This document shows, piece after piece, positions 399-13,604 of a stretch of 64,000 bases of DNA. This DNA comes from a virus (taxonomy: Duplodnaviria; Heunggongvirae; Uroviricota; Caudoviricetes): the IMG/VR virus record IMGVR_UViG_3300031413_000570; one strand, given 5' to 3'. Positions within the stretch are counted from its first letter, which is position 1; the number at the start of each line of letters is the position of its first letter. Under the pieces are notes generated by a model. It saw only the letters and a program-made list of their open reading frames with translations. It was not told the origin of the DNA and did no database searches. Made by a program: the position numbers and the translations under genes.

Positions 399-704
399 TT
401 ACAACCCTATCTCTTCATGAGTTCGAACAGGAGCTTGCTTGAGAATATCTAAAATCCACTTAGTTCGTTCACCAAGCAATGCTTGGAACGGTAGCTGACT
501 ATTTACTTCTTCAGCAGTGATTCTTAGGTATATCATTATTCTGTCACGGTTATAGAAATCATTTTCCAAATCGTTATGATGATGCCAAAGTCTGGTATTA
601 CCCACCCAAACAAAAATTCGGTGTTCACCAAAATTTTCTTGAGCTGCTATCCACGAGATACTGTCTTCCGAATTTGACACTCTCCAAAAGATGTAACTGT
701 TCAT
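399..704 (-). CDS. hypothetical protein (101 aa)
   Basis: Complete ORF co-oriented with flanking genes. No recognisable motif. Confidence 0.45.
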   Translation of the reverse strand: MNSYIFWRVSNSEDSISWIAAQENFGEHRIFVWVGNTRLWHHHNDLENDFYNRDRIMIYLRITAEEVNSQLPFQALLGERTKWILDILKQAPVRTHEEIGL

Positions 705-803
705 GTTTTTACCTTTGCTTGACTTGCCGACTTTGCTATCTCAGACTGTAGATAACAACATTTCCTATTCAAGAGTAGCTCACACTTAGTTGGCACACCC
801 GTT

Positions 804-860
804 AAATAGCGTTAGTGCTACAAATCCACATTACGTAGAGTTGTAGCACTAACGCTATTT
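804..860. repeat. 20-bp perfect inverted repeat (AAATAGCGTTAGTGCTACAA / TTGTAGCACTAACGCTATTT) with a 17-nt loop, followed by TTTTT on the plus strand
   Basis: Read directly from the sequence. It lies immediately downstream of the nadE stop (873), in the intergenic gap between two minus-strand genes. Possible terminator or protein-binding site. Confidence 0.4.
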
Positions 861-872
861 TTCAGTAGAGAA

Positions 873-1718
873 TCACTTCCACCATGTTACTGCAGGGTCA
901 ACAGGGAGCTGACGCTTGTGTTCTGTCATCAGGTAACGCAGTTCAATTTTTTGAGCTGCAACCACATTGACATCCTTACCTTCAAGGTAGTCGTCAAGAA
1001 CATCATAGGTAATACCCAGCTCAGTCTCATCAGCCTGACCTGCTTTGTTGTCCAGAAGGTCAGCTGTGGGAGCCTTAGTGATAACAAACTCAGGAGCTCC
1101 AGCAAGACGGAGAAGCTCTTTACCCTGGCGTTTGTTCAGACCACTCAACGGAAGAACATCTGCAGCACCATCACCGAACTTGGTGAAGAAGCCTGAAACT
1201 GCCTCAGCAGCATGGTCTGTACCTACAACAAGCAGCTGGTGGGTTCCAGCGTAGGCGTACTGTGTTACTGCACGGGTACGGGCTTTAACGTTACCTTTAT
1301 GGTAGTCGCTGAGGTTATCTGCCTCATCTCCCGACCAGCCAGCAATGTCATTGTACTGGTCAGTGAAAGCATCCACCGCAGGCTTGATGTTGTACTCAAT
1401 TACCTGGTCAGCCTTGATGAAGTCGCGGGCAATGGTGATTGCGTCATCAGCATCTTTCTGAGTCCCGTAGGGGAGGAGAAGAGCTAAGAACTGGTAGTTC
1501 TCACCTGTCTCATCGCGGAGTTCGCGGACAGCTGTCTGAGCAATGTAGCCGGCGAGAGCAGAATCCTGTCCACCGCTGATTCCAAGTACAAATCCTCTGG
1601 TGCCAGCATTACGGGTGAAGTCTTTGAGGAAGTCTACACGAGTGCGTAGTTCCTGTTCTGCATTGATGACGGGTTTTACCCCAAGAGTGTTGATAATCTG
1701 TTTCTGGAGCTTGGTCAT
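873..1718 (-). CDS. nadE: NH3-dependent NAD+ synthetase (NadE)
   Basis: PP-loop motif [14 protein letters not shown] is characteristic of NadE, and the protein is NadE-sized. The start was moved to the internal ATG (MTKLQKQII), which is preceded by AAGGAAGGAAAC about 8 nt upstream. The track ORF extends further, to 1766. Confidence 0.85.
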
Positions 1719-1792
1719 GATACGGGTTTCCTTCCTTAGACCATTCTTATTACAGTATATCGTCATATTGACGAAAAAGCACGTTTTTGTGA

Positions 1793-2440
1793 CTATTTCC
1801 TTTGAGAAAGTTTTCGAATGACTGTCAACGCATCATATCCGTGACCATACACATAACTTTCCCATGTGTGCGGAGTGAGCTGCTGTTCAAATGTCAACTC
1901 TGTAACCTTATCTGTGTTCCAATTCCAGCTGTTGTTATTACTGGTGATAAGGACAGGAACAGTATGATTCTGCCTGAGAAGAGTAATGACATCCAGCCAA
2001 CCTTTATCTTTTTGGAAGATATCTGGGTGGGCATCTTGGATGATATCTGCTACCCAGTTTGTGTCTTCTGCTGCAACCCACATTCGGGTCGCGTGGTGGA
2101 GCCGGGAAAGAAGTTTCATACTGTTGTTACCAACACTTTGCACAGTGTTCAAGTTGATATTGTAACTATCCAACACCTGCTCTTCCACAACAAGGTGGAA
2201 TTCCTTGTTATTGAACTCAGTAGTGAACTGTTCAGCCCAGCGTACTATATCTCTTGTCTCTTGCGAAAGAGAATTCTCTGCTGTAATTACTTTACGAAGG
2301 ATGTCTTGATTCCAGGCAGGCTGGAGAAAAGCTTTACCTATGTTGTTGATGATGTCAGCAAATTTGTGACTTTCGCTGGGCTGAACAGTTACGGTGTTTG
2401 AGTCTTCACCGTGTTGGGCATGGAACTGGATGGCATTCAT
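1793..2440 (-). CDS. hypothetical protein (215 aa)
   Basis: Minus-strand ORF preferred over the antisense plus ORF 1802..2401, which is Cys/Ile-rich and atypical. No motif recognised. Confidence 0.45.
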
Positions 2441-2482
2441 ACAAGCATTCTACCATGAGATAACCTGTGTGTTTGATAGATG

Positions 2483-3706
2483 TTATCTGGGTGTTGTGTC
2501 GAAAATTCTTGCGAACGAAACTGGAAGGCCAGGTCTAGGAACGAAGAAAACCTCTCCGCCTTCGTTTCTCCAATAAGACTGACCTGAGGAAAGTGTGTCA
2601 AGCCTTTTACCAAAAAGTTCAGAGGTTTCTGCCGACGAAGAACGGTAAGCTATAAAGTCGGAGTATTGGCTGTTGTTTTCTTCAAGTTCACCTACTGTGA
2701 GCATAACCAAATTTAGGCTTCGTGCTAACCTACTGAGCTGGTTCAGTTCAGCGACATACTGGTAGTTCCTACCATCGACAATTAGCATTTTTGGTTGACT
2801 ACTTGGTCGTGCATGTTGTTTAACAAAATGGAATACTGTTTGAACGATAGCTGCGTGCTGTCTTGCTTTAGTGGTGTCCAAGGCTTCTACTGGTGCTGTA
2901 AGCGGAACTTCAGCTGCATCAAAGACATAATCTTTTTCAGGGTCAATCACCAATACATTCTCAGAGTACCCAAAGAACGGAGCTCCGATGGAACTGAGAC
3001 CCAAATGGGAAAGAGCAGCTGTTTCATATTGGAGTTCTTCATACTTGCTGATTACCTGCAGCAGTCCTGTCAATGAAGGCTGTTTAGTTTTATACTGTTG
3101 TTTGATGAGCGTTGTTAGCGTCTGGTTTGCTCGTGCTTGATAGTAAGCATCTCTTGAAAGTGTCAACGTGTTGATAAAGTGGAGAATATGCTCTGTCGAC
3201 ATATTTGTTTTGAATGGGTTCAGGTAGCCTGATTCCATTTTTGTCAACATCAGAATCTGGGTGTCTTCATTGAGTGTTTTCAGATAGTCAGATGCCAAAC
3301 CTATGACGAAGGTAGGCATCTTCATTCCTTGGGCAAGAAATGCTGCGTAGGATGCTGCTACGCTTTTACCTGAGCCCGGCTGCCCTGTAAGAAGAATGTT
3401 TTTAGTCCTCTGAGTATCAGAGGGAATGTGCGATTCTGCTAGCAATGCTGAGAATGGGTTACCTGCGTAATACGGAATGGGTTCCATTTCGGCAACAGGA
3501 TTAGACTCTGATTCTTTGATTAGACCGTACTCTACGAGCAAATCTCTGAGCGAATCTTCTGTTGCTGTCCCTTTGTTCAGGGTGATGTTTATCTGAGGAA
3601 CATCTGGGTCTGTTGCTGTGAGGTGGATGGAATCATCTTTGTGTTTATATGAAACACGTACACCTTCAAGCTCTAAATAACGCCCGCGTTCTGGTTTTTG
3701 CACCAT
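2483..3706 (-). CDS. P-loop NTPase (Walker A LLTGQPGSGKSVAA), function unknown
   Basis: Walker A GxxGSGKS. A hydrophobic strand followed by D (MLIVDG) is a candidate Walker B. 407 aa. Confidence 0.5.
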   Translation of the reverse strand: MVQKPERGRYLELEGVRVSYKHKDDSIHLTATDPDVPQINITLNKGTATEDSLRDLLVEYGLIKESESNPVAEMEPIPYYAGNPFSALLAESHIPSDTQRTKNILLTGQPGSGKSVAASYAAFLAQGMKMPTFVIGLASDYLKTLNEDTQILMLTKMESGYLNPFKTNMSTEHILHFINTLTLSRDAYYQARANQTLTTLIKQQYKTKQPSLTGLLQVISKYEELQYETAALSHLGLSSIGAPFFGYSENVLVIDPEKDYVFDAAEVPLTAPVEALDTTKARQHAAIVQTVFHFVKQHARPSSQPKMLIVDGRNYQYVAELNQLSRLARSLNLVMLTVGELEENNSQYSDFIAYRSSSAETSELFGKRLDTLSSGQSYWRNEGGEVFFVPRPGLPVSFARIFDTTPR

Positions 3707-3785
3707 GATAGGTACTCCTTTGTTGTCTAAATCGAATAAACTGGTTTACTGCCAGGGCAGACATGCTAAACATGCTAACTCAGTC

Positions 3786-3806
3786 TATCGGAACAACTTC
3801 AGGCTG
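3786..3806 (-). promoter_or_regulatory. 21-nt motif TATCGGAACAACTTCAGGCTG, copy 1, upstream of gene 2483..3706
   Basis: Identical 21-mer also found at 4279..4299. Both copies sit in short gaps upstream of minus-strand genes. Confidence 0.25.
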
Positions 3807-3814
3807 CTGTATTT

Positions 3815-4270
3815 TTAGTCCCTATTAGTAGACATTGATTCGACAATAATTAACAAATTGTTATGAGGAGCCTGACTAATTGATACAACCCAATTTGGGG
3901 CAAACGAATTTTTTTTATTGTTTGGAATAACTTGCAAAAGGTAGCAAGAGCGATTACCTTTATCAACAGTTTTATCAACCGTAACGCCGGCTCTTTTCCT
4001 ATATTGAGCTGTTATTTTTTCGATTAGTGTCTCACTCAAATACACCGAATGTAATAAAGCAACACCACTTTGGATACCCGAAAAAGTCATATTGAACCCC
4101 TCCAGCTCTGTAACCTTTATAGGTTCTTTTAAGTACCTTTCACTACCTCTAATTACATCACCTAAAACAGTCAAGCTTCCATTCATATACTTGCGATTAG
4201 CATTGTTGATAAGCATGAATACAATAATCAAAATAATTGCAACAGTTATAATAGCGAATAGAATAGACAT
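3815..4270 (-). CDS. membrane protein, hypothetical (N-terminal transmembrane helix)
   Basis: N-terminal hydrophobic segment ILFAIITVAIILIIVFMLI. 151 aa. Confidence 0.45.
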   Translation of the reverse strand: MSILFAIITVAIILIIVFMLINNANRKYMNGSLTVLGDVIRGSERYLKEPIKVTELEGFNMTFSGIQSGVALLHSVYLSETLIEKITAQYRKRAGVTVDKTVDKGNRSCYLLQVIPNNKKNSFAPNWVVSISQAPHNNLLIIVESMSTNRD

Positions 4271-4278
4271 GAGTGAAT

Positions 4279-4299
4279 TATCGGAACAACTTCAGGCTG
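4279..4299 (-). promoter_or_regulatory. 21-nt motif TATCGGAACAACTTCAGGCTG, copy 2, immediately upstream of the start of gene 3815..4270
   Basis: Exact repeat of 3786..3806, read directly from the sequence. Confidence 0.25.
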
Positions 4300-4888
4300 T
4301 TGCTGTTTTACTCTTTTTCGCGGTAAGGTTTCGGAAAATACGTACTCCTACAACAATGACCAGTATTACTGCTACGGGTACTAATACTGGAATGAATATA
4401 GCCATAGCAACTAAACCTACTGTAAGAATGTTTTCACCAAAACTGACAATGGGTGTTACCATTCCACTCATTGTTGCGTTGATAAGCGGTCTGATGAACA
4501 TCTTCATCAAATGAGGAAGTAAAGCAATAGCTAAACCAATGATGAACATGGGAAAGCCTGGAGAACTCACAAAATTGCTAATCTGAGTCACAGGAACATC
4601 TGTTACATGAGTACCTGCAGCAAACAGCAATCCGCCTGATGTTGGACGGATTGCTGTTTGGATGACATCATTCAACGAATCAACTGCCGCTATTTTGTCG
4701 GCAAAAAACTCTACTAAAGCTAAAGCAATCAAGATCGCTAATGTCCAGTTGTCTTCCATCCATGACCAGTTTCCTGGGAGAGCGAAGAAGTCAGTGAACT
4801 TTGATAACAAGCTGACAGCAATCAGAGGAATGTAAGCGTTCAACCCTGCTGCTAAAGCAAGACCTACCGCTGTAAGTATTTCAAGCAT
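4292..4888 (-). CDS. integral membrane protein (DUF4126-like, multi-pass)
   Basis: Several hydrophobic helices. Overall resemblance to DUF4126-family membrane proteins. 198 aa. Confidence 0.45.
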   Translation of the reverse strand: MLEILTAVGLALAAGLNAYIPLIAVSLLSKFTDFFALPGNWSWMEDNWTLAILIALALVEFFADKIAAVDSLNDVIQTAIRPTSGGLLFAAGTHVTDVPVTQISNFVSSPGFPMFIIGLAIALLPHLMKMFIRPLINATMSGMVTPIVSFGENILTVGLVAMAIFIPVLVPVAVILVIVVGVRIFRNLTAKKSKTATA

Positions 4889-4905
4889 GCATCATGTCTA
4901 TCATC

Positions 4906-6429
4906 TTACTGCAATTCAGTCATCAATTGAAGATGCTTTTGGCACAAGTCAGCCACTGTCATGTCTTCAGCAAAACCGAACATGGTGAAGTCCTGATGTT
5001 CTTTGATGTCACCTACCGTAATTTTTGTATTACGGTAAAGTGCATAGTTCAGTTTCCATAATTCGGTGGAGAAACTGTACACTCGGTCAGGGTTGATTCG
5101 AGCACGGCTTACAAGGTTCACATAAGGAGCAATGTAAGGCATTCTTGTCGTTTCTCCTGTAGGAGTTGCAACCGTAAGTCCGCCGTGTTCGGTTCCAAGG
5201 ATAAAGTCTCGCAAATCAACTACGTCATACAAATCAGAACCCAGCTCAGAAATCAGGCTGTCCTGCTTGTCAACAACAACATCGTGCGTTTCCAGCATGT
5301 TGGAAACGAAACTCATTGTCTCCCCAGTAGCAATGTCATCATCCACAAGAGTGTACACTCCAGCAGGAATTGCTTCTACCTGCTCTTGAAGGGCTGGCGA
5401 GCCAGGACGGTTGACATATTTGATAGCATGATGCTGGCTACCTCCAGTGGAGAACAGGCGAGAGATTTCAAGGTTCTGTTCTGCTTTCCAGAAACAGTCC
5501 AAAGAAATCACATTCTCTGTCTCAGTATGGTTAGCCATCTGTCTGATGATGGGAACCCTTTTCACTCTCACTTTCTCGTAAGTCACATGCGCCTGCAAAA
5601 GAATAGCTACAGAGTCCGCAATGATTTTGTTCGAGTAAGGAGTAGGGTTTTCTCGGAACGCTAAATCCAGGTCTTCCCGCAGTACGTAAGTGGAACCTAA
5701 AGCACTTCTTCCATGGATATCGATAGCTCCAGGGTTTGCTGCTCGTGCAGCTGTAGAAGAATGGTCTGTGCAGACTTTCTCGCTGAAGACAACCCTTTTC
5801 TTCGCGTCAGGATGCACCAGGCTCAAGTCCATCTGAGCTCCTTCTCTTGGAACGCAAACACCATGACCGTATTCAGTGAAGCTGTTTGCAAACATGTAGT
5901 TGTCTCCACCGAAGACCATGTACAGTTTGATGTTCAAATCAGGCAACCAACGCTTCAGGTAAAGGTTGAATCTGTCATACAGTGTTGTGAAGTTCAAATC
6001 AGTGGGAGCATACAGAGCAGCCCAGTCGTCCACCTGCATCCAGGGTTCGTTTTCTACTGCTTCATGTAGAAGGGCGATGCGGTTAGGTGCGATGAAACGT
6101 TCGTCATGAGTTTTACGCATGATGTAGTTGTCGTGGTCGGGAGTAAAGTAGCCTGCAGCTACAGTTTCACCTGTTTGGGTTTCGATTGCTTCTTTGGCTA
6201 ACCTCATAGCTCCAAGGTGTCCTTCGTGAACTGGAGCGAAACAACCAGGGTAGAACAAGACAGATACGTCCTTTTTACCTGCATCACGAATAGCCTGCAA
6301 AGGAGTTGTGTAGAATCGCACATGCGGGTTGACACGTAACGGCTTATTTTCAATCCAACCTGCTGTTACTAAGTCCTGCTTGCTGTTGGTTCTTTCGTAA
6401 AGAGCCTGGAAGTATCTGTCTAAATTCAT
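4906..6429 (-). CDS. fusion of nicotinamide/nicotinate-mononucleotide adenylyltransferase with a type I phosphoribosyltransferase-like domain
   Basis: N-terminal (H/T)xGH nucleotidyltransferase motif FAPVHEGHLGAMRLAKE, as in NadM/NadD NMNATs. C-terminal PRPP-binding loop VYTLVDDDIATGETMSF, as in type I PRTases and PRPP synthetase. The stop overlaps the start of the next gene. Confidence 0.65.
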   Translation of the reverse strand: MNLDRYFQALYERTNSKQDLVTAGWIENKPLRVNPHVRFYTTPLQAIRDAGKKDVSVLFYPGCFAPVHEGHLGAMRLAKEAIETQTGETVAAGYFTPDHDNYIMRKTHDERFIAPNRIALLHEAVENEPWMQVDDWAALYAPTDLNFTTLYDRFNLYLKRWLPDLNIKLYMVFGGDNYMFANSFTEYGHGVCVPREGAQMDLSLVHPDAKKRVVFSEKVCTDHSSTAARAANPGAIDIHGRSALGSTYVLREDLDLAFRENPTPYSNKIIADSVAILLQAHVTYEKVRVKRVPIIRQMANHTETENVISLDCFWKAEQNLEISRLFSTGGSQHHAIKYVNRPGSPALQEQVEAIPAGVYTLVDDDIATGETMSFVSNMLETHDVVVDKQDSLISELGSDLYDVVDLRDFILGTEHGGLTVATPTGETTRMPYIAPYVNLVSRARINPDRVYSFSTELWKLNYALYRNTKITVGDIKEHQDFTMFGFAEDMTVADLCQKHLQLMTELQ

Positions 6430-7166
6430 CGTACTTTCCTGTACATAATGTCTGTTCTAATAATTGTTTTTGTGCCAGTTCCGGTGACCTTTTCAGCGTC
6501 ATGCAGGAGGCGATGGTCGAAGACTACAGCTGTTCCGTCTTCAGGAGCGAAGCGAAGTCTAACTTCATCTTCGTCAGCGGCACGGTATTCATCACTAAGT
6601 TCACGCTGAGCGACAGGAAGATGAGCCTGAGGGTCGTGAAGATAACGAGTTGCTCCTCCATGAAGTTCACCTGGGTGTTCCAGATACACGACAAGGCTTT
6701 GAAGTGTGCGGACATCTTCTGATTCGACATACGGAGCATCGTAATGAACTACCAGCCAGCCTCCTTCTTCGTATTTGATGAATCGAAGAAGAGGTGACAC
6801 ACCGATGGGTTCCCATAGTTCATGACCGTCGAAGTCGGTGTTGTCTGCATCTGTGAATGTGCGGACAGTAGGGAAACCGTGCTTGATTCTGTTCCACAGA
6901 ACGTCAGCATACTCAGGAGTGTAATTGGAAGCCCGGTAGGAACCAATAGGGTCGCCTTCTTTCCAGTTTCCTGACATTCCTGTCACTGACACAGGCTGCC
7001 AGTTGGATTCTTCCAACGCTGCCATGATGCTAACTTTTTCCTGTTCAGGAATGAGTTCAGGAATCACTACAGCTGTACGGTCAAGTTCAGGGAATGGTCT
7101 CACTTTAACTGCATGAGCCACAGCAGGGATTTCAAAGTTAACTTGGTTTACGAATTTAGTTGCCAT
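6426..7166 (-). CDS. 2OG-Fe(II) oxygenase superfamily protein
   Basis: Candidate HxD...H iron triad (VVHYDAPY ... FDHRLLHD), typical of prolyl-4-hydroxylase-like dioxygenases. 4-nt overlap with the NMNAT gene and 11-nt overlap with the upstream PP-loop gene. Confidence 0.6.
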   Translation of the reverse strand: MATKFVNQVNFEIPAVAHAVKVRPFPELDRTAVVIPELIPEQEKVSIMAALEESNWQPVSVTGMSGNWKEGDPIGSYRASNYTPEYADVLWNRIKHGFPTVRTFTDADNTDFDGHELWEPIGVSPLLRFIKYEEGGWLVVHYDAPYVESEDVRTLQSLVVYLEHPGELHGGATRYLHDPQAHLPVAQRELSDEYRAADEDEVRLRFAPEDGTAVVFDHRLLHDAEKVTGTGTKTIIRTDIMYRKVR

Positions 7167-8121
7167 TCTGGGGCCTCCAAGGCTGGTTGTTCCATCCGTT
7201 TGGGATTGTTGCGTTCATAATGTCCAGGTGGATGGATGGGGTTCCGTAGGTGTATTTATGTGCGTTGTAGTCATGTAGTTTTTGCAGGTTTTTGGCTCCT
7301 GTGACAAAGTGGGCATCTCGAAGAAGCTTCAACGGAACGCTACGTGCCTGCAGCCACAAATGGAACAGCTCTACGAAGTCATAAGAAGCTCCGAAAACTG
7401 TTTCATCTTCACGGCCGTCATACATGTCTCCTGTAGGAGTGGCTTTCATGACGCTTTCAGGAACTTCGAGCAAAGCTGCAACTTTGTACACTTCTGACTT
7501 GTACAAATCAGAGATTACTTGCAGGTCAACCATACCATCTGAAGCTTTTCCTACATAACCAAGGTATCCACCTTCGGAAAGGTTTGTTGTGCCTACCACT
7601 AAGGCAGGGTAGCCGGCGTCAGTCAGGATTGAACAGGTATTGTACAGGACTGGGGTTCTGGTGTAAGCCACCAGCTGTCCTTTAGCCCAGTCTGTTGATT
7701 TGATATCCAGGATGTCTTCCAATTCAGAAGTAATCACTTGGGAAAGAGATGTGAGCTTAGTGAAAATAGCTGGCTTCAGTCCCAGGTCCTGGCACAGGTC
7801 GGTAGCCTGCTGGACTGCACCGTCTTGGTTAGTTGCACCTTCGTAAGAAAGTGCAGGAAGTAGAAGAGGGACAATCTTCTGAATTGGACTGTTGTCCTGC
7901 TGGGATGCTTTGACGAGAAGTGAAAGGGCTACAGCTGAGTCAATACCACCAGAAACGCCTACTACAGCCCCTAAGAGCTTGTTCTGAGCGAAGTACTGGT
8001 TGATGAGGACAACCTTACGCTCAATCCATTCTGTAGCGTCAAAAGCCCGCACAGCTCTTAGCTGCTCTAAGGTCTGAGCCAGCTCTGCAGTCATGGTTAC
8101 TGTGTCATTGTAGACTTTCAC
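7156..8121 (-). CDS. PP-loop ATP pyrophosphatase, NadE-like paralog (candidate NAD or NMN synthetase)
   Basis: SGGIDSAV PP-loop in the same position as in NadE family proteins. Second NadE-like gene in the window. 321 aa. Confidence 0.6.
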   Translation of the reverse strand: MKVYNDTVTMTAELAQTLEQLRAVRAFDATEWIERKVVLINQYFAQNKLLGAVVGVSGGIDSAVALSLLVKASQQDNSPIQKIVPLLLPALSYEGATNQDGAVQQATDLCQDLGLKPAIFTKLTSLSQVITSELEDILDIKSTDWAKGQLVAYTRTPVLYNTCSILTDAGYPALVVGTTNLSEGGYLGYVGKASDGMVDLQVISDLYKSEVYKVAALLEVPESVMKATPTGDMYDGREDETVFGASYDFVELFHLWLQARSVPLKLLRDAHFVTGAKNLQKLHDYNAHKYTYGTPSIHLDIMNATIPNGWNNQPWRPQNGN

Positions 8122-8783
8122 GATTCATCTTTCGTATGGGAGTTGTAGATATGGTTGGCGACTGCTTCAACGGAGTCAATTACGGGGAGTTCAGTCATGG
8201 TTCGGAGTGTGTCAGCCATCACGGATAAATCTGTGCAGCCTAATACAATGCAGTCTGAGCCAGCTCGTTCAGCAGCAGCTACGACATCTGTCAACTGAGG
8301 GTGGGATATTTGGTACTTCATCCCAGCAGCAATAAGTTCATCTGCAAACATGTTAGTTGCAATGTAGGCTGCATGGCTATACAGGTTGTCCTCTGAGGTG
8401 AGTTTGGAACCTACGATAAGAGGTTTGGAGTACTCAGAATCTACGACAGCTTGACTGGTGAGGGTAGGAACAGAATGTAGTTTGTTAGCAAATACTTGCT
8501 GCATGAACTCTTCTTCGACGTGGAAGGTGTTACAGATGACATAAACATCTGTGACACCTTGGAACAGAGGAGCTGTTTTACCAAGTTCGGTTCGTAGCAT
8601 ACCAAGGCTACTGATACGCCCTTCGGCATTGATGATGTCTTCAGGTAGATTGGAAATTACCATACGAGGGAAGGCAGTATCAGCGTATTGTCCAGTGCTG
8701 AGAACTTGCTTTACGAGCAGCTGCTGGAGATGTAGGGTGGCTACCGCCCCATATCCGCCGAGAATTCCGTATGTGTTCTTCAT
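8118..8783 (-). CDS. Asp/Glu/hydantoin racemase family protein
   Basis: N-terminal ILGGYGAVAT (compare GILGGMGP). Two conserved catalytic Cys motifs, VICNTFH and LGCTDL, match aspartate racemase CNTAH/GCTE. First gene of the overlapping four-gene operon. Confidence 0.65.
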   Translation of the reverse strand: MKNTYGILGGYGAVATLHLQQLLVKQVLSTGQYADTAFPRMVISNLPEDIINAEGRISSLGMLRTELGKTAPLFQGVTDVYVICNTFHVEEEFMQQVFANKLHSVPTLTSQAVVDSEYSKPLIVGSKLTSEDNLYSHAAYIATNMFADELIAAGMKYQISHPQLTDVVAAAERAGSDCIVLGCTDLSVMADTLRTMTELPVIDSVEAVANHIYNSHTKDES

Positions 8784-8805
8784 AACATCCTAATCATACC
8801 ATCTT

Positions 8806-8826
8806 TATCGTCACAATGACGATAAT
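8806..8826. promoter_or_regulatory. perfect palindrome TTATCGTCA-CAA-TGACGATAA (9-3-9), candidate operator about 23 nt upstream of the first start codon of the NAD operon
   Basis: Read directly from the sequence, in the AT-rich intergenic region upstream of the racemase start. Confidence 0.4.
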
Positions 8827-8888
8827 ATTACTAACATTTTAAAAGAAAAATGACCCCATTTTCAGGAGCCATTTTCTTCAGAATCAAA

Positions 8889-10130
8889 TTACATGTTCCA
8901 CAAGGTGTTCTCGTCCTCAGGCTTCACACGGTCCCAAATTTTATGAGACTGAACTACGCTTCCAACAGCGTTGCCGTTGAACTCAAGGTTCATGACGAAA
9001 GCTTTGTTTTCGGCTGGCACAAGAGGTGAGTCTTTCAAAGTGGTAGCAAAAGTCTTGCGGTCGTAACCAGCAGGAAGAGTTGCCTTGAAAGCGCCATGCT
9101 CATCCGTGATTTGGGCAATTTCTTTGTTATACCCAGCAGTGATTTTAGCCTGACGAGTGGATACAAACTCACTGAACTCTTCAGGCATGTTCTCTTTCCA
9201 ACCTGCCATATCTTCACCCATACGCATTTTACGCCAGATAGTTTTGGAAGTCACGCCAGTACGGTTACGGTGGAGTTCAAGATAATCTGCATGCTTATAC
9301 TTCACACGGGTGTCAGTATCGATGTAATGAACGATGAAACCTTCACGGTTTTCTCTTTCAGGAGAGTGAAGAACAGCATCTAAGGAGGAAAAGTCTTTGT
9401 ACTCTTCAGCTCTTTTCCATTTCCATTCTTTGATGTCACGTAACGGAACTGATTTACCAGTTCGTTTGTTAACAGCACCGATGAGATGCAAGTCATCCTC
9501 ATCGCCATAGTTAACCACAACACGGTTCTCTGGGTAGATAATTTCCCACATGTAAGTCAACTTAGGATTTGGCTTCCAGTTTCCTTCGTAACGGTCATGG
9601 TAGAGCTCTGTAGAACGTTTTGCTTGTTCGGATATGAAACTTCCAGAGGTTGCAATGTTGAATTTGCCGTTCTCATCAACATAACCGATTCCTAAGGAAC
9701 CGTCCAGCTTGTCAGTCACGCTAATTCGACCATGCAATTTATCTCTGGGAACTGATGGTTCGTTGTGGTTGAAGAACTTAGCAAATGGACGAGCGACAAT
9801 CTCGCCTGTCTCCTCGTTGAAAATGACACCACGAGAAGCTAAGGTCACGTCATCCCAGTCAGAAGCGAACTGAGTTGTCCGGGAATACTTGTAAGTCACA
9901 TAAGGATGCTCAGGGTGGCGGCTGCACTCAATGCGACCATCATCGTAAGCTTTCTGGAAAGCTGACAGAGGAGGCAGTTCATTAGCTGGAGCAACAGTCT
10001 CAGCAGCTGTTTCTACTTGCTTGAAAAAAGCGACTTTCTCTGTATTTTCGCGGCCTCTGATCGAACAGTCTTTGGTCCAGCAGTTTGTACCATCGTTGTG
10101 ATAGTACGGAGGTTTTCTTGTATTTGACAT
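8889..10130 (-). CDS. ATP-dependent RNA ligase (nucleotidyltransferase superfamily), paralog 1
   Basis: Motif I KLDGSLG, preceded by SRGVIFNEETGEIVARPFAKFFNHNE. Globally similar to the ORF at 23550..24671. T4 RnlA-like context together with pnk. Confidence 0.65.
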   Translation of the reverse strand: MSNTRKPPYYHNDGTNCWTKDCSIRGRENTEKVAFFKQVETAAETVAPANELPPLSAFQKAYDDGRIECSRHPEHPYVTYKYSRTTQFASDWDDVTLASRGVIFNEETGEIVARPFAKFFNHNEPSVPRDKLHGRISVTDKLDGSLGIGYVDENGKFNIATSGSFISEQAKRSTELYHDRYEGNWKPNPKLTYMWEIIYPENRVVVNYGDEDDLHLIGAVNKRTGKSVPLRDIKEWKWKRAEEYKDFSSLDAVLHSPERENREGFIVHYIDTDTRVKYKHADYLELHRNRTGVTSKTIWRKMRMGEDMAGWKENMPEEFSEFVSTRQAKITAGYNKEIAQITDEHGAFKATLPAGYDRKTFATTLKDSPLVPAENKAFVMNLEFNGNAVGSVVQSHKIWDRVKPEDENTLWNM

Positions 10131-10171
10131 GCCCTATTACTAACAAAGAAACAGGCAACAGAATACAAAAA

Positions 10172-10215
10172 ATTGAGGGACCTGCACTTTAGTTGCAAGT
10201 GCAGGTCCCTCAATG
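10172..10215 (-). terminator. stem-loop (TTGAGGGACCTGCACTT ... AAGTGCAGGTCCCTCAA), probable intrinsic terminator after gene 10224..11105
   Basis: 17-bp perfect stem seen in the sequence. Confidence 0.5.
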
Positions 10216-10223
10216 ATACAAAA

Positions 10224-11105
10224 TCAGAAGTTCAGGCTATCTTCCCAAAAACGACGAGGCACCAAGTAAGTGACAACTCGTTCGTAACGCTCAGCGTTTT
10301 TGTTCAGCCACAGCACGCCACGAGGGTTCTCATGAGGAATGCCTGCATGCTCTTTCATCATGTAAGAAGCAATCTCAGGAAGGGTGTCGCCAATGAAACC
10401 TGTAGTGTGTTCAGCGTCAACACCAACTCGCCAGAAGAAGTTCTCATAATGAGTGTCCTCTGGAAGCTCTTCCTGGAATGTCGAGAAAGAAAGAGCGTAA
10501 ACTTCGAACTTGCGTGTGTCAACATGGGCCAAGAAACTTGCAACCACCTCATCCTGGTCTTCGATATCACCAATACTGTTCACCAAAACAAGCACAGGGC
10601 GACCAGCAGCAACATCAGCATCATACTGACTCCAAATGGAATCCATGTTAGGCTCATCTCCTGAGTCGATACGAACCACTTTGTCAGTACGCAGGTAGTT
10701 CGCAGCACCATACATGTCAGCTGGGGCGTTCACAGCATAGATTCGAGTGTTCGTAGCGTAAGCCCAGAGAAGATAGTTTCTGACGAAGTTCAGAACACCT
10801 GAACCGTCTTTACCTGCAATGGTGAGGTTCTTGTGTACACCCAGGTCAGCTCGGGAAGGGTGACCATCTGTTCTAACACCGAATGAACCTACCTGGGAGA
10901 GGTTGTTCAGGGGAACCGTCGACTTGACAAATTCTACTCGTCCCTGGTCTTCAAGAAGAGCTCGAACAGCTTTATCCTCGTCAGAACCTCGCGTGAGGGC
11001 AAAGCTAAGAGGAGAAGAGAAGTCTGAAGATGATGAACTCATAAGAGTCAAATCTTTCACTGCGTCGTATGAGACCTCAGCTCTAAAACCTAAATTTGTA
11101 GTCAT
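10224..11105 (-). CDS. hypothetical protein (293 aa)
   Basis: Complete ORF. Contains GKDGSGV but no confident family assignment. Confidence 0.45.
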   Translation of the reverse strand: MTTNLGFRAEVSYDAVKDLTLMSSSSSDFSSPLSFALTRGSDEDKAVRALLEDQGRVEFVKSTVPLNNLSQVGSFGVRTDGHPSRADLGVHKNLTIAGKDGSGVLNFVRNYLLWAYATNTRIYAVNAPADMYGAANYLRTDKVVRIDSGDEPNMDSIWSQYDADVAAGRPVLVLVNSIGDIEDQDEVVASFLAHVDTRKFEVYALSFSTFQEELPEDTHYENFFWRVGVDAEHTTGFIGDTLPEIASYMMKEHAGIPHENPRGVLWLNKNAERYERVVTYLVPRRFWEDSLNF

Positions 11106-11185
11106 AATGGAACCCTTTCAGTGAACTGTGTGATGCTGCGTTGTATGTTACTCAAGTTTACCACAGAACGCGTTATTCAGCAACA

Positions 11186-11231
11186 AAATAGGGTCAAAAT
11201 CCTTGATTTTATCAGGATTTTGACCCTATTT
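11186..11231 (-). terminator. long hairpin (AAATAGGGTCAAAATCCTTGAT / ATCAGGATTTTGACCCTATTT)
   Basis: Stem of about 21 bp with one bulge, downstream of the small ORF 11237..11440. Confidence 0.45.
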
Positions 11232-11236
11232 ACGGT

Positions 11237-11440
11237 TCACATTTCGTCGTTACGGATGTCCTTTTTGACGCTCTGCTTCTCCTTCTTGCGGAGAGCTCGG
11301 CGCCAACCTCGACCGCCAGTTGCAGCTCCAGTGCGACGCTTGCCTTTGAAGTGTCGGTGCTGCCAGAAACCATCATCGAACATAGTGCTGTCAACGTTGT
11401 TCACGGCACGGTTCTTGTTGGAAGCCATCATTCCAGGCAT
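11237..11440 (-). CDS. small basic protein (67 aa), hypothetical
   Basis: GAGG about 8 nt upstream of the ATG. Highly basic, Lys/Arg-rich. Followed by a hairpin. The overlapping plus ORF 11121..11444 is judged spurious. Confidence 0.3.
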   Translation of the reverse strand: MPGMMASNKNRAVNNVDSTMFDDGFWQHRHFKGKRRTGAATGGRGWRRALRKKEKQSVKKDIRNDEM

Positions 11441-11541
11441 ATAACCTCAATCTGCTGTTCGGTTCGTATAGTAACAACAGTATCGGATAAATGGTGAGAT
11501 GTCAAGAAGCTGCTGGTCCATCAAGCTGTTAGAAATGAAGC

Positions 11542-12513
11542 ATGTGTTACCCAAAACCTGGTCCCCGTTGTTCAGCTCATGCTGCAGCTACTTTCGCTAA
11601 AGCTCATCAAGCAGTCCTCAGTGCCTTCATGGACAACCGTAAAGACCCAGAGCTTGAGAAGCTGATAGCGGTAAGAAAAAAAGCTGAAGCGGAGTACAAG
11701 CTGACACCAGCTTATCTAAAGTCTCTGGAAAGACAGATCAAAAAGAACCCAACGCAAGAATGGCATGCGGAAGAGTATGAAACACTTTCTCAAGAACGTT
11801 CCCGAAGATTAGCTGCTGTTGCGGATCGCAAAGTCATCACCCACAGAAAAGCGCAGAAGGCTGCTTACACTTCACCAAAGTTTTTCAAAACTGGTGACAC
11901 CCTCGAAGAGATGCATTACAAACATGCTGATTTGTTGAACAGTATGGCAGATTCCCAAAACTGGAGTGCCAAACTGGATGATACTGAAATAGCTACTCTT
12001 CGCTGGTATTCAGAAGATGGTTATGCTGACATCAACGGTCATCTTTCAGCTTCGAAGAACCCGTACGCAAAAAACGTTGCACCTGAAACGTTGGATGCAG
12101 CTGTAACCATTCTGGATGATGCTTTCGCTAAACACGAACCAGCAGAAGAAGGTGTGATGGTTTACCGCCGGCACCATCTATATGATGAAAAAGGTTACCA
12201 TTCAAGTGATGATGCTCAGAATCTTGACAAACATTTCCCTGTTGGTAGCACATACGAACCTAAGTTCTTCATGTCGACAAGTTTGAATCCTCAGGACTTA
12301 CCTTCTAAAGACAACATCAATGTTTCTCTACAGATTCTTACAAAAAGTGGTGCTCCAATCACAGCTATCTCATCGCAAGGTCCAAGAGAGTATGAGTTCA
12401 TCATTCCTCGCGGTGCAAAATTCGAAGTTGTTGCTAATGATGTGAAAGTCAAAAGGGTCAATAAAAAAGGTGAAGCAACTGAACTGACAATTGTGCAGCT
12501 GCGAGAAATTTAA
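11542..12513 (+). CDS. mono-ADP-ribosyltransferase (R-S-ExE class) with N-terminal C-x7-C-x2-H motif
   Basis: Catalytic triad elements VYRRH (Arg), FMSTSLNP (STS) and REYEFIIPRG (ExE). N-terminus MCYPKPGPRCSAHAA. Architecture similar to T4 Alt and toxin ARTs. Confidence 0.75.
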   Translation: MCYPKPGPRCSAHAAATFAKAHQAVLSAFMDNRKDPELEKLIAVRKKAEAEYKLTPAYLKSLERQIKKNPTQEWHAEEYETLSQERSRRLAAVADRKVITHRKAQKAAYTSPKFFKTGDTLEEMHYKHADLLNSMADSQNWSAKLDDTEIATLRWYSEDGYADINGHLSASKNPYAKNVAPETLDAAVTILDDAFAKHEPAEEGVMVYRRHHLYDEKGYHSSDDAQNLDKHFPVGSTYEPKFFMSTSLNPQDLPSKDNINVSLQILTKSGAPITAISSQGPREYEFIIPRGAKFEVVANDVKVKRVNKKGEATELTIVQLREI

Positions 12514-12564: not shown

Positions 12565-13470
12565 TTAGAAGTCTCCGTAGTCAACCTGGAATACAGGAAG
12601 ACCCAGCTCACGACGATAAGCGTCGACAACCTGGTTCCGGTCATCCAAAGCTAACAGGATGTTGAAACGTTCCCGAATATGGGCATCAAAAAGTTCACGC
12701 TTGATGATGTTGTCTTTACGGTAGTCGTTATGAGGTCTCATGTAGATTTCGTCCACAGGAACACCAGCTACTTCCAGAGAAAGCAACGTGTCTGCCTTGC
12801 AGACTTCATCTCGACCAGACATAACAACAACTTTGTAGCCCTGAGCATGCAGAGCTTTCACTGTTTCAACAACAGGCGGGTTAGGCTCGTCGTCAATGAC
12901 TTTGTGCCAGTCAAACGGTCCACGATGTGAACCCATCTTCATGGCCGTACCGTCAACATCCAAAAGGATAGCTTTAGGCAGAGTCTCATCAGGAACATAG
13001 ATTCCTGCTGCAGCTGCTTCGTAGTCAAGTACAGGGAACGGAGGGAACTTACCGCTCTGGATGTAACGCTTGAATGTTGTTTCAATCACCTGTGCAGGAA
13101 CTTTACGCTCACGAGCAGCGTTACGGGCAAGAGCTGTCTCAAGCTCAACAGGGAAGTCCTGATGGACGACAGGAACGTTAGCTTTCTCCGCGATAAGGAG
13201 ATACTCTTTGACGTACTTGGCTTTCAAATTCACATTGTCAACGACAACACTTTTGCGTGCAGCAAGAAGAGCGGTGATGATGGCATGCTCCACTTTGGTA
13301 ACAGCGACTTCAAGCTCCTGAGGAAGCTCGTAGGAGCTGAACTGGCTGAGACGAATGTCATCACGGTTCACACGGGCACGGTTTAACGGGTCCTGGTTCA
13401 CCCAGCGGATGGCTTCTGTAGATTTACCGGAGCCCTGTACTCCCCGGTGAATCCGCATTATCTGTGACAT
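12565..13470 (-). CDS. pnk: polynucleotide 5'-kinase / 3'-phosphatase (T4 Pnk-like)
   Basis: N-terminal P-loop kinase GVQGSGKST. C-terminal HAD phosphatase motif LLDVDGT. ATG start chosen at MSQIM, with AGGAA 5 nt upstream. The track ORF begins at a TTG at 13497. Confidence 0.8.
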   Translation of the reverse strand: MSQIMRIHRGVQGSGKSTEAIRWVNQDPLNRARVNRDDIRLSQFSSYELPQELEVAVTKVEHAIITALLAARKSVVVDNVNLKAKYVKEYLLIAEKANVPVVHQDFPVELETALARNAARERKVPAQVIETTFKRYIQSGKFPPFPVLDYEAAAAGIYVPDETLPKAILLDVDGTAMKMGSHRGPFDWHKVIDDEPNPPVVETVKALHAQGYKVVVMSGRDEVCKADTLLSLEVAGVPVDEIYMRPHNDYRKDNIIKRELFDAHIRERFNILLALDDRNQVVDAYRRELGLPVFQVDYGDF

Positions 13471-13604
13471 TTTGTTTCCTAACTTAAGATACTCCAACTT
13501 ACCATGAAATCCGGCCAGCTGTCAAATACTATGTGCATTAGCTGTTGATGATAGAATTCTTTGACCGCTCATAAAGCTGACAACGATTAAGGAACATTAG
13601 CATC

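Follow-up and report, generated by a model that had tools for sequence, protein, structure and literature searches.

Phages can rebuild NAD by several described routes. NARP1 consists of Adps and Namat, NARP2 of NadV and NMNAT(/Nudix), and NARP3 of PnuC and NadR. In addition, NadE-carrying jumbo phages and pncB-nadD-nadE clusters have been published (PMC11662467; PMC13464706; bioRxiv 10.1101/2024.02.11.579819). The NARP1/2 preprint makes no mention of NadE, and NadE is outside the coverage of the Aravind survey of viral NAD systems. The NadE family (PF02540) is represented by the Bacillus subtilis (1NSY, 1KQP) and B. anthracis (2PZ8) enzymes, and in Francisella an NMN synthetase (NMNS or NadE*; 3FIU) is coupled to NadM in place of NadD (PMC3376133). 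The jumbo-phage locus described here shares with NARP1/2/3 and the pncB-nadD-nadE clusters what appear to be a PRT-type step and an NMNAT step for rebuilding NAD, encoded by a phage, whereas those systems have neither an oxygenase-coupled NadE-like enzyme nor a fusion of NMNAT with a type-I-PRT-like domain. Pfam and PHROG assignments of the genes within 10 kb of the divergent NadE gene (NadE2) did not contain any of the NARP1/2/3 families, and our literature searches found no paper describing the module to which this gene belongs.

The locus lies in a window of 64,000 nucleotides (IMG/VR record IMGVR_UViG_3300031413_000570), by which we mean the whole stretch of DNA that was analysed, and which is part of a jumbo-phage genome of about 308 kb. 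Because a megablast search of positions 800-8800 gave zero matches to GenBank phages, there is no close sequenced relative among these. As the initial annotation had claimed, the genome encodes two NadE-family proteins, NadE1 with the motif GISGGQDS and NadE2 with VSGGIDSAV, both on the minus strand (Table 1), and its description of the second as a longer, divergent paralog also holds (321 versus 281 aa; own clade). The two proteins are strongly divergent, tblastn matches between NadE1 and the genes of the NadE2 family reaching just 44-72 bits. A scan of positions 600-9200 for sigma-70 promoters and terminators was left unused because its hits were not above the shuffled expectation.

Table 1. 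Genes of the two NadE-family proteins and of the NadE2 operon in the window.
Feature	Position	Strand	Length (aa)	Basis and remarks
NadE1, predicted canonical NH3-dependent NAD synthetase	873..1718	-	281	PRK00768 346.9 bits, cut-off 250
DUF4126 membrane protein	4292..4888	-		Pfam DUF4126 151.9 bits
NMNAT/PRT fusion protein	4906..6429	-	507	N-terminal NMNAT/NadD-fold adenylyltransferase, C-terminal type-I-PRT-like domain
2OG-Fe(II) oxygenase	6426..7166	-	246	Pfam 2OG-FeII_Oxy_3 34 bits, PhyH 22 bits
NadE2, divergent NadE-like PP-loop ATP pyrophosphatase	7156..8121	-	321	GTG start; Pfam NAD_synthase, AF2/Foldseek
Asp/Glu-racemase-family protein	8118..8783	-	221	Pfam Asp_Glu_race; first gene of the translationally coupled operon

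NadE1 falls squarely within the NadE family. The longest version of its open reading frame extends to 1766; the homologues favour the 281-aa start, which agrees with the N-termini of the B. anthracis and B. subtilis NadE proteins and with the gene call in a near-identical phage contig (L006). NadE1 matches the Pfam NAD_synthase profile with 221.6 bits (E 1e-65) and clears the NCBIfam equivalog cut-off (PRK00768), which implies the same function. It scores 335 bits against B. anthracis NadE (2pz8) and 324 bits against B. subtilis NadE, and the functional residues checked equal those of the latter save for the conservative changes Y32F, F129Y, and Y171F, plus R78L. Two related phage contigs, L001 and L006, have the gene at the same relative position. 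Judged by its sequence, NadE1 is an ordinary NAD synthetase of the textbook ammonia-dependent type, converting NaAD, ATP, and NH3 to NAD.

NadE2 starts with a GTG that overlaps the stop codon of the upstream racemase-family gene as GTGA, and its N-terminus (MKVYN) is kept among homologues. It belongs to the NadE family as well, with 106.4 bits for Pfam NAD_synthase (E 2e-30, cut-off 21) and 104.2 bits for TIGR00552 (cut-off 63.65), and the family profile matches of both proteins are far beyond chance. NadE2 stays under every full-length NCBIfam equivalog cut-off (PRK00768, PRK13980, PRK13981, PRK02628), the best score being 120.1 bits for PRK13980 (cut-off 255), with 71.7 bits for PRK00768 (cut-off 250). 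In its AF2 model (pLDDT 86.1) NadE2 adopts the NadE fold, and in Foldseek the first 48 ranks of PDB matches are taken by NadE structures without exception (target-normalised TM 0.67-0.85). The initial annotation had named a non-NAD PP-loop family such as GMP synthase, QueC, or ThiI as the competing assignment. NadE2 does not fall there, because other PP-loop families match the phage proteins only marginally (16-19 bits, E 1e-3 to 1e-2) and the best structures are all NadE. Identity as GMP synthase, QueC, ThiI, TilS, or MnmA was rejected, no match being better than NadE (GuaA 19.2/18.0 bits, TilS 16.1 bits); the NadE2 family profile reaches 24.8 bits against GMP synthase subunit B. A LarE-like sulfur transferase was rejected too (27 bits for a bacterial NadE2 homologue, cut-off 150).

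Compared to canonical NadE, NadE2 has the same fold, the SGGxDS PP-loop (S57, G58, G59, D61, and S62), and equivalents of the B. subtilis residues E162, K170, D173, D177, K186, H257, and K258, but it is 40-50 residues longer, forms its own clade, and nearly always lies beside an NMNAT/PRT partner (62/63). The equivalents of S46, D50, E162, K170, D173, D177, K186, and D210 are kept throughout the NadE2 family, which comprises 253 protein clusters at E<=1e-30; position 208 is variable (T/S/A/N) and D210 retained. Going by these residues, the adenylation site is intact. H257 and K258, both retained, belong to the C-terminal nucleotide-site motif of canonical NadE. NadE2 carries the substitutions N133Q, R137Y, and T169G, and the family has fixed Q133, G169, and Y137 (H or C in two members), whereas N133, R137, and T169 are kept in the enzymes from B. 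subtilis, B. anthracis, Pseudomonas aeruginosa, F. tularensis, Pyrococcus horikoshii, Helicobacter pylori, and Campylobacter jejuni. These three residues are presumably substrate contacts, N133 and R137 in the B. subtilis structures. Further changes are F129W and the aromatic residue 171 to alanine. The motif GFFTKFGDG was dropped as a sole substrate marker because genuine NAD synthetases of H. pylori and C. jejuni also deviate from it.

The initial annotation had placed NadE2 with the Francisella-type enzymes. Like Francisella NadE* with NadM, NadE2 is a single-domain NadE homologue whose partner at the locus is a putative NMN-capable adenylyltransferase and not a stand-alone NadD, and 3FIU is among its best sequence and structure matches. 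However, NadE* keeps N133, R137, and T169, has neither an oxygenase nor a PRT partner, and groups with canonical NadE. A Francisella-type descent is not borne out: the NadE2 family profile scores equally against P. horikoshii NadE (2e18, 85.5 bits), Francisella NMN synthetase (3fiu, 85.4 bits), and C. jejuni NadE (3p52, 81.5 bits), and in neighbour-joining trees (BLOSUM62 distances, without bootstrap, several references cut to their aligned parts, only the clear NadE2 split being used) the Francisella enzyme falls among canonical NadE and the NadE2 clade is monophyletic and apart. In the structure search 3fiu comes first nominally, with a lead over 1nsy, 1xng, and 2e18 of about 4- to 15-fold in E-value; the order of PDB matches in the sequence and structure searches was discarded as a discriminator, as it does not separate NMNS-like from NADS-like enzymes. 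On these scores and trees, the NadE2 clade shows no closer relationship to the NMN synthetase of Francisella than it does to ordinary NAD synthetases.

The partner genes of NadE2 are tightly packed. The racemase-family protein has both catalytic-cysteine motifs (VICNTFH and LGCTDLS), its best solved relative is the P. horikoshii aspartate racemase (1jfl, 40.9 bits), and 11 loci have a homologue upstream of NadE2. The oxygenase gene shares 11 nt with the end of NadE2 and 4 nt with the start of the gene that follows. This gene encodes the fusion protein, whose N-terminal domain is a predicted NMNAT by its HIGH-type GxFxPxHxGH motif, its SxTxxR motif, and its fold, and is closest to the dual-specificity eukaryotic-type NMNATs. 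The C-terminal domain has a conserved PRPP-loop motif, in which D364, D365, and G369 are invariant and D363 nearly so. The DUF4126 gene follows 18 nt downstream of the fusion gene; this position is kept in the phage contigs L001 and L006, no DUF4126 gene was found at the bacterial module loci, and the protein may belong to the module as it exists in phages.

The proposal that NadE2 is coupled to the fused NMNAT is strongly supported because of conserved adjacency and gene fusions. NadE2 adjoins the NMNAT-like/PRT-like fusion in 62 of 63 non-redundant loci, which include 52 bacterial species and gut phages, and both genes are on the same strand in all 62 tabulated entries (61 loci plus the window). 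The module is spread over many phyla including candidate-phyla bacteria and is present on 11 IMG/VR phage contigs, in jumbo and gut phages, and on a Streptomyces plasmid. The oxidising partner is usually a 2OG oxygenase in aerobes, as in this phage, and a small radical-SAM enzyme in gut anaerobes. For 19 of the 62 entries, a 2OG homologue is encoded between NadE2 and the fusion or beside them. Among the 150 best cluster representatives, 93 have the 2OG domain fused to NadE2, namely 63 as NadE2::2OG and 30 as NadE2::2OG::NMNAT::PRT, and two are NadE2::NMNAT-PRT; the Pfam composition of the fusions was confirmed on three proteins (P0214 with 1171 aa, P0218, P0238), and the single-polypeptide versions of the module have about 1200 aa. 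The 2OG fusion is also present in five genomes, four of which are named as candidate-phyla bacteria. An oxidase was not detected at six loci (L025, L035, L041, L046, L048, L057), of which L035 has no upstream sequence, and at the viral locus L064. The operon is headed either by an aspartate-racemase-like gene (type A) or by a DAP-decarboxylase-like PLP enzyme (type B).

Some of these neighbourhoods belong to the NAD regulon or to phage NAD systems. Canonical NadE and/or NrtR are encoded within 10 kb of the module in about 9 of about 55 distinct loci, with a chance estimate below 1%. In Clostridiales bacterium GWE2_32_10, PncB, a glutamine-dependent NadE, and NrtR are encoded directly downstream of the module, and the Saccharibacteria operon has the order NadE(Gln), Nudix/NrtR-like, racemase, NadE2::2OG, fusion. 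Canonical NAD synthetase recurs together with NadE2 (in the phage, Saccharibacteria, Elusimicrobia, and Clostridiales), which argues that the two enzymes are not simply redundant. The cultured Xanthomonas phage X1 encodes a distant version (fusion-like, 2OG, and NadE2-like proteins) beside NMNAT and NAMPT, so that the module there accompanies a NARP2-like pair and does not replace it. Some single-polypeptide versions have natural-product-like neighbourhoods with ATP-grasp, PhyH, FAD monooxygenase, and P450 genes. PADLOC recognised no known defence system in either the phage module or a bacterial nine-gene version; its matches were a generic 2OG model, a weak pVip-like one for the radical-SAM proteins, and two marginal ones at 13-15 bits. 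Beta-lactam and carbapenam synthetases work with clavaminate synthase and CarC, respectively, so that one small molecule is acted on by both a carboxylate-adenylating ATP-pyrophosphatase-type enzyme and a 2OG-Fe(II) oxygenase. By analogy, NadE2 and its oxygenase may be the same kind of pair. The synthetases, however, are asparagine-synthetase-B homologues and have neither nucleotide-forming domains nor an NAD-regulon context.

With its three predicted activities of the Preiss-Handler type, the core of the module therefore most likely forms a complete route that starts with a free pyridine carboxylate and ends with an amidated pyridine dinucleotide; NadE2 would receive its nucleotide from the partner and amidate it. 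We give this reading a probability of about 50%. The product would most likely be NAD or a close derivative, and NadE2, instead of being a free-standing paralogue, would adenylate and amidate the carboxylate as one part of a conserved module. The PRT-like domain, if catalytically active, would join the base with PRPP to the mononucleotide, the NMNAT/NadD-fold domain would join this with ATP to the dinucleotide, and NadE2 would turn the carboxylate into the carboxamide, with either NaMN or NaAD as its substrate depending on the order of the steps. The oxygenase and the racemase presumably have roles of their own in the route. The window encodes NAD consumers of the ADP-ribosylation type, two ADPrib_exo_Tox proteins and one WGR-PARP protein, and the phage might use the module to maintain its NAD supply, both for these ADP-ribosyltransferases and its PARP-like protein and in the face of host defences that deplete NAD. 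These consumers, the NAD-regulon context, and the neighbours in phage X1 speak for the route, as do the fold and the kept catalytic residues of NadE2, the conserved PRPP loop, the gene adjacency, and the fusions. Against a complete line from nicotinate to NAD it can be said that the adjacent canonical NadE and PncB would then be redundant. No known NAD route has a place for the near-obligate oxygenase or radical-SAM enzyme, or for the racemase or PLP enzyme; the loss of N133, R137, and T169 would fit a different substrate, and the natural-product-like neighbourhoods of some single-polypeptide versions also count against it.

A serious though unlikely alternative is that the module makes a product other than NAD, such as a modified (e.g. 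hydroxylated) or non-nicotinamide carboxamide dinucleotide serving as specialised metabolite or NAD mimic. In this reading NadE2 would amidate the non-canonical nucleotide, whose base or ribose would be modified by the oxygenase or radical-SAM enzyme. The oxidase is almost always there and often fused straight to NadE2, and oxygen-dependent and oxygen-independent enzymes sharing one position across lineages are typical of a single conserved step. The altered substrate-pocket residues, the Streptomyces plasmid copy, and the neighbourhoods resembling biosynthetic gene clusters would fit as well, and the coexistence with canonical NadE, PncB, and NARP2-type genes would be explained without redundancy. 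However, the operon contexts with NrtR, PncB, and NadE point to genuine NAD supply, the six loci and the viral L064 have no detected oxidase, and a luxury metabolite is less expected in genome-reduced candidate-phyla bacteria.

The scheme of the initial annotation, in which NadE2 is an NMN synthetase (NaMN to NMN) ahead of the fused NMNAT (NMN to NAD) and parallel to NadE1 (NaAD to NAD), is a special case of the preferred route with the step order fixed, and appears rather unlikely. The coupling of NadE2 to an NMNAT fold parallels the Francisella NMNS-NadM pairing (PMC3376133), the partner domain is nearest to dual-specificity enzymes, the recurrent canonical NAD synthetase suggests a different substrate for NadE2, and 3fiu nominally heads the structural matches. 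But the equal profile scores, the separate clade, and the narrow structural lead show no specific kinship with Francisella NMNS; the equally similar archaeal-type NadE is an NAD synthetase without NMNS activity (PMC3376133), and the residues 133, 137, and 169 are common to Francisella NMNS and the NAD synthetases and changed in NadE2. Family membership and NMNAT coupling had been recognised correctly in that scheme, which missed the oxygenase/radical-SAM partner and the PRT-like domain. Neither of these has a role in a simple NaMN to NMN to NAD line, and the racemase is left unexplained too.

It is improbable that NadE2 and the oxidase work at an earlier stage, with a free acid and not a nucleotide as their substrate, and with canonical NadE then completing the step from NaAD to NAD. 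Either the base for the PRT would be built or converted via adenylation, amide or lactam formation, and desaturation, as by beta-lactam synthetase and clavaminate synthase, or NadE2 would ligate D-aspartate and the oxygenase would cleave the adduct oxidatively, leaving the primary amide. Every gene of the Saccharibacteria and phage operons would then be non-redundant, canonical NadE included, the type A and type B operon heads would imply an amino-acid input, the NadE2::2OG fusions would suggest consecutive steps on one functional group, and the loss of R137 and N133, which are invariant in the nucleotide-binding NadEs compared, would be accounted for. But the scheme is purely inferential, NadE2 keeps H257 and K258, there is no enzyme to supply the extra carbons of a pyridine ring, and no NadE-family member is known with a non-nucleotide substrate or a non-ammonia nucleophile. 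Finally, a redundant second NAD synthetase isozyme acquired by horizontal transfer is very improbable: NadE2 does pass the Pfam and TIGR00552 thresholds, its relatives are publicly named 'NAD+ synthetase', and jumbo phages with NadE genes have been reported before (PMC11662467), but the strict linkage or fusion with the NMNAT/PRT protein and the oxidase across phyla, the distinct conserved clade, and the signature substitutions fixed family-wide all oppose it.

The depletion and reconstitution of NAD is a central front of the conflict between phages and bacteria, and descriptions of three phage reconstitution pathways have appeared since 2024. The present locus points to a further widespread NAD-linked module with tightly coupled parts, whose oxygenase or radical-SAM step has no place in known NAD pathways. 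The automated labels 'NAD+ synthetase' and 'nicotinate-nucleotide adenylyltransferase' probably hide a distinct function. More tentatively, NadE2, the oxygenase or radical-SAM enzyme, and the NMNAT::PRT fusion could form an unrecognised biosynthetic line, leading either to a novel dinucleotide of the pyridine type, which would be a derivative or mimic of NAD, or by a new route to NAD from an amino-acid-derived or otherwise non-standard precursor, whose aerobic and anaerobic versions phages may have captured for the conflict over NAD. As a distant version is encoded by the cultured Xanthomonas phage X1, the question is directly testable.

Both ORFs described as NadE-family genes in the initial annotation are genuine members of the family, with Pfam NAD_synthase scores of 221.6 bits (NadE1) and 106.4 bits (NadE2). 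NadE1 also reaches 346.9 bits against the NCBIfam equivalog PRK00768 (cut-off 250), and 335 and 324 bits in comparisons with the NadE proteins of Bacillus anthracis and Bacillus subtilis. Its longest ORF extends to 1766; a start at 1718 agrees with the N-termini of homologues and with the gene as predicted on a near-identical metagenome contig. NadE1, and NadE genes of jumbo phages in general, were already known. NadE2 scores 104.2 bits against TIGR00552 (cut-off 63.65) and stays far below every full-length NCBIfam equivalog cut-off. In profile comparisons other PP-loop families match it only marginally, and it is thus not a misassigned non-NAD PP-loop enzyme. We found more than 1200 homologues of NadE2, and 253 clusters at E<=1e-30 in the representative library.

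NadE2 belongs to an operon of four translationally coupled genes with overlaps of 4, 11, and 4 nucleotides, its start codon overlapping the stop codon of the upstream gene as GTGA. The racemase-like protein is closest to the aspartate racemase of Pyrococcus horikoshii and keeps both catalytic cysteines. The last gene encodes a fusion of an N-terminal NMNAT/NadD-fold and a C-terminal type-I-PRT-like domain. All genes between 873 and 11105 are encoded on the minus strand. A nucleotide search of GenBank phages with positions 800-8800 gave no match. The same proteins in identical gene order are present on a 307,689-bp metagenome contig and a 40.8-kb JGI contig, and synteny is kept on a 482-kb contig (L001) at about 70% protein identity. 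L001 also has genes of 415 and 259 residues between module and NadE1, which resemble those of the window in size and position. The PHROG and Pfam content (T4-type RNA ligases, PNKP, NucS, RNR small subunit, dCMP deaminases, an Hsp70/MreB-like protein, and an intein-containing methylase) and the size of the larger matching contig indicate that the window is part of a jumbo phage.

Features of the window and of related loci
Feature	Position	Strand	Remarks
NadE1	873-1718	(-)	281 aa; GISGGQDS motif
215-aa protein, no family	1793-2440	(-)	between module and NadE1
P-loop ATPase, 407 aa	2483-3706	(-)	weak AAA_10, mad8, and TraC-like matches; between module and NadE1
DUF4126 membrane protein	18 nt downstream of fusion gene		
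Fusion, 507 aa	4906-6429	(-)	last of four coupled genes
2OG-Fe(II) oxygenase (2OG)	6426-7166	(-)	between NadE2 and fusion
NadE2	7156-8121	(-)	321 aa; GTG start; VSGGIDSAV motif
Asp/Glu-racemase-like gene	8118-8783	(-)	operon gene upstream of NadE2
Two T4 Rnl1-type RNA ligases and PNKP-like kinase/phosphatase (AAA_33 + HAD_PNKP)	8889-10130, 23550-24671, 12565-13497	(-), (+), (-)	
Two ADPrib_exo_Tox-family ADP-ribosyltransferases and WGR + PARP-catalytic-domain protein	11542-12513, 34389-35399, 36561-37889	(+), (-), (-)	three predicted NAD consumers
HSP70/MreB_Mbl (Pfam) protein, 619 aa	19586-21445	(-)	end-to-end match to phrog_22485 (function unknown), 844 bits
ArsP_1 permease-like gene and DUF1980 gene	25767-27471	(-)	overlapping pair
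dNMP-kinase-like N-terminus and DNA cytosine methylase split by Hint/intein domain	43074-45791	(-)	905-aa ORF
NadE2::2OG single ORFs	L056 9944-11710; L039 9968-11725; L049 9938-11710; L045 1318-3072; L042 1621-3372		
Xanthomonas phage X1 (L078, OQ427096.1), cultured	4086-6747, 8665-11676		distant module trio and NAD pair

The P-loop ATPase and the neighbouring 215-aa protein may be part of the NAD island. The RNA-repair set of ligases and PNKP-like protein directly adjoins the NAD module. The 619-aa protein looks like a phage Hsp70 or actin-like ATPase, and the ArsP_1/DUF1980 membrane-transport pair is unusual for a phage. PHROGs label the PARP protein merely as 'polymerase'. The joint presence of NAD-making and NAD-using genes in jumbo phages, including pncB-nadD-nadE clusters, has already been published (PMC11662467).

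The association of NadE2 with the fusion is strongly conserved. When one genome per species was scanned, NadE2 relatives were found in 52 genomes, including Clostridia, Bacilli, Elusimicrobia, Gastranaerophilales, several candidate-phyla lineages, Streptomyces (also on a plasmid), Variovorax, Alphaproteobacteria, Bdellovibrionales, and others. A fusion homologue adjoins NadE2 on the same strand in all 62 cases (61 loci and the window), and unbiased clustering of the neighbouring ORFs recovered the fusion in 62 of 63 non-redundant loci. Two arrangements can be distinguished. Type A, with the order NadE2, 2OG, fusion, is found in the window phage, Streptomyces, Variovorax, Proteobacteria, and candidate-phyla bacteria, with a racemase-like gene upstream in 11 loci. 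Type B, in gut anaerobes, consists of a DAP-decarboxylase-like PLP enzyme, a 291-aa, weakly MoaA/viperin-like radical-SAM enzyme, NadE2, and the fusion, often accompanied by five more conserved genes. A nine-gene anaerobic cluster is conserved in L002 (6035-15497) and about 20 other gut-bacterial loci, in which the four type B genes are followed by a GNAT, a SPASM-type radical-SAM, a 617-aa unknown, a 114-aa coiled-coil, and a 253-aa unknown protein. Because its neighbours in L002-L005 are a large serine recombinase and defence genes of the Lamassu or Hachiman type, this cluster may be carried by a mobile element. Eleven IMG/VR viral contigs have a NadE2-family gene beside the fusion, ten of them (L065-L072, L074) in the order radical-SAM, NadE2, fusion. 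Our queries detected neither oxidase in L025, L035, L041, L046, L048, L057, and the viral L064, of which L035 is uninformative because it has no upstream sequence. Since the O2-dependent and the radical-SAM enzymes occupy equivalent positions, largely tracking aerobic and anaerobic lineages, the module seems to include one conserved oxidative step.

Further evidence comes from gene fusions. NadE2 and 2OG form a single ORF of about 585-604 residues in five genomes, four of which are named as candidate-phyla bacteria, each with a racemase-like gene before it and the NMNAT/PRT fusion after it. Among the best 150 cluster representatives, 63 are NadE2::2OG fusions, 30 are single NadE2::2OG::NMNAT::PRT polypeptides (about 1100-1430 residues), two are NadE2::NMNAT-PRT fusions, and 55 are stand-alone NadE2. 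Precomputed Pfam annotations confirm NAD_synthase, 2OG/PhyH, and CTP_transf_like in three of the long proteins. As Rosetta-stone evidence, these fusions strongly indicate that the four activities all belong to a single pathway. The single-polypeptide genes of L079 (8001-14243) and L081 (5369-11237) lie beside ATP-grasp, PhyH, FAD-monooxygenase, P450, and radical-SAM genes, in neighbourhoods that look like biosynthetic gene clusters.

Several neighbourhoods connect the module with NAD metabolism. In Clostridiales bacterium GWE2_32_10 it is directly followed by PncB, a glutamine-dependent NadE, and NrtR. A Saccharibacteria genome has the order NadE(Gln), Nudix/NrtR-like, racemase, NadE2::2OG, fusion, where neighbouring genes overlap or abut. 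The racemase-like/NadE2::2OG set of L056 has a glutamine-dependent NadE and a Nudix/NrtR-like gene immediately upstream. A short canonical NadE, NrtR, or both are found at most 10 kb from the module in Elusimicrobia and other Clostridia. In total, a canonical NadE or NrtR lies no more than 10 kb away in about nine of about 55 distinct loci, while by our estimate a single-copy gene would be expected by chance near a given locus of a megabase-scale genome in well below 1% of cases. In phage X1, the gene for a 372-aa fusion-like protein (profile E 9e-10) is followed by those for a 2OG oxygenase (27% identity to that of the window) and a NadE2-like 'NAD(+) synthase' from a sister branch of the NadE2 clade; an NMNAT and a nicotinamide PRT are their immediate neighbours.

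The invariant module core would combine PRT-like and NMNAT reactions with an ATP-dependent amidation, which is a compact form of Preiss-Handler enzyme logic. Because of this match, and because the neighbourhoods tie the module to NAD regulons, we favour a self-sufficient route that begins with a free pyridine carboxylate and ends with an amidated pyridine dinucleotide, and in which NadE2 would amidate the product of its partner fusion (probability about 0.5). This reading does not account for the oxidase, for the racemase or PLP enzyme, for the repeated coexistence with canonical NadE, PncB, or NARP2-type genes, or for the changed pocket residues, so that three alternatives were kept. Numbered according to the B. 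subtilis NadE chain (identical to 1ee1/1nsy), the NadE2 family retains the PP-loop and R139, Y144, T157, E162, K170, D173, D177, K186, D210, H257, and K258. N133, R137, and T169, which all seven characterised enzymes in the comparison share, the Francisella tularensis NMN synthetase (3fiu) among them, are replaced by Q, Y, and G, the aromatic residue at 171 by A or S, and W is invariant at 129. The changed positions presumably line the NaAD site. Because the catalytic residues are kept and these positions are changed, the adenylation chemistry is, as judged from the alignment, intact and the acceptor pocket remodelled. A modified or non-NAD dinucleotide as product would suit such a pocket and the oxidase but is unlikely given the NAD regulons.

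The fixed order NaMN to NMN to NAD, proposed initially for a 'Francisella-type' NadE2, is rather improbable. 3fiu is indeed the first match in structure searches, but the E-values of 1nsy, 1xng, and 2e18 come within about 4- to 15-fold of its own, with query-normalised TM-scores equal to or above that of 3fiu. Among solved structures, P. horikoshii NadE (65.5 bits) and the Francisella enzyme (63.5 bits) match NadE2 best by sequence, and the family profile scores 85.5 (P. horikoshii), 85.4 (F. tularensis), and 81.5 bits (Campylobacter jejuni). In neighbour-joining trees, for which some reference sequences were shortened, NadE2 forms its own monophyletic clade and the Francisella enzyme groups with canonical NadE. 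NadE of the archaeal type acts as a NAD synthetase and lacks NMN synthetase activity, and the Francisella adaptation has been linked to NadM replacing NadD (PMC3376133). Resemblance to 3fiu thus has no diagnostic value, and the family assignment is unsupported; NadE2 might nevertheless act as an NMN synthetase. That NadE2 and the oxidase might act upstream on a free acid, by analogy to beta-lactam synthetase and clavaminate synthase or by aspartate-dependent amidation with oxidative release, would account for the oxidase but is improbable.

The known phage NAD reconstitution pathways NARP1, NARP2, and NARP3 use proteins different from those of the module, PADLOC has no model for it, and our literature search found no description of a NadE-like, oxygenase, NMNAT::PRT module. 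We regard the module as one for NAD-type nucleotide synthesis in which both the enzyme subfamily and the architecture are new; there is a real, though less than even, chance that its chemistry is new as well. The cultured phage X1 provides a tractable experimental system.
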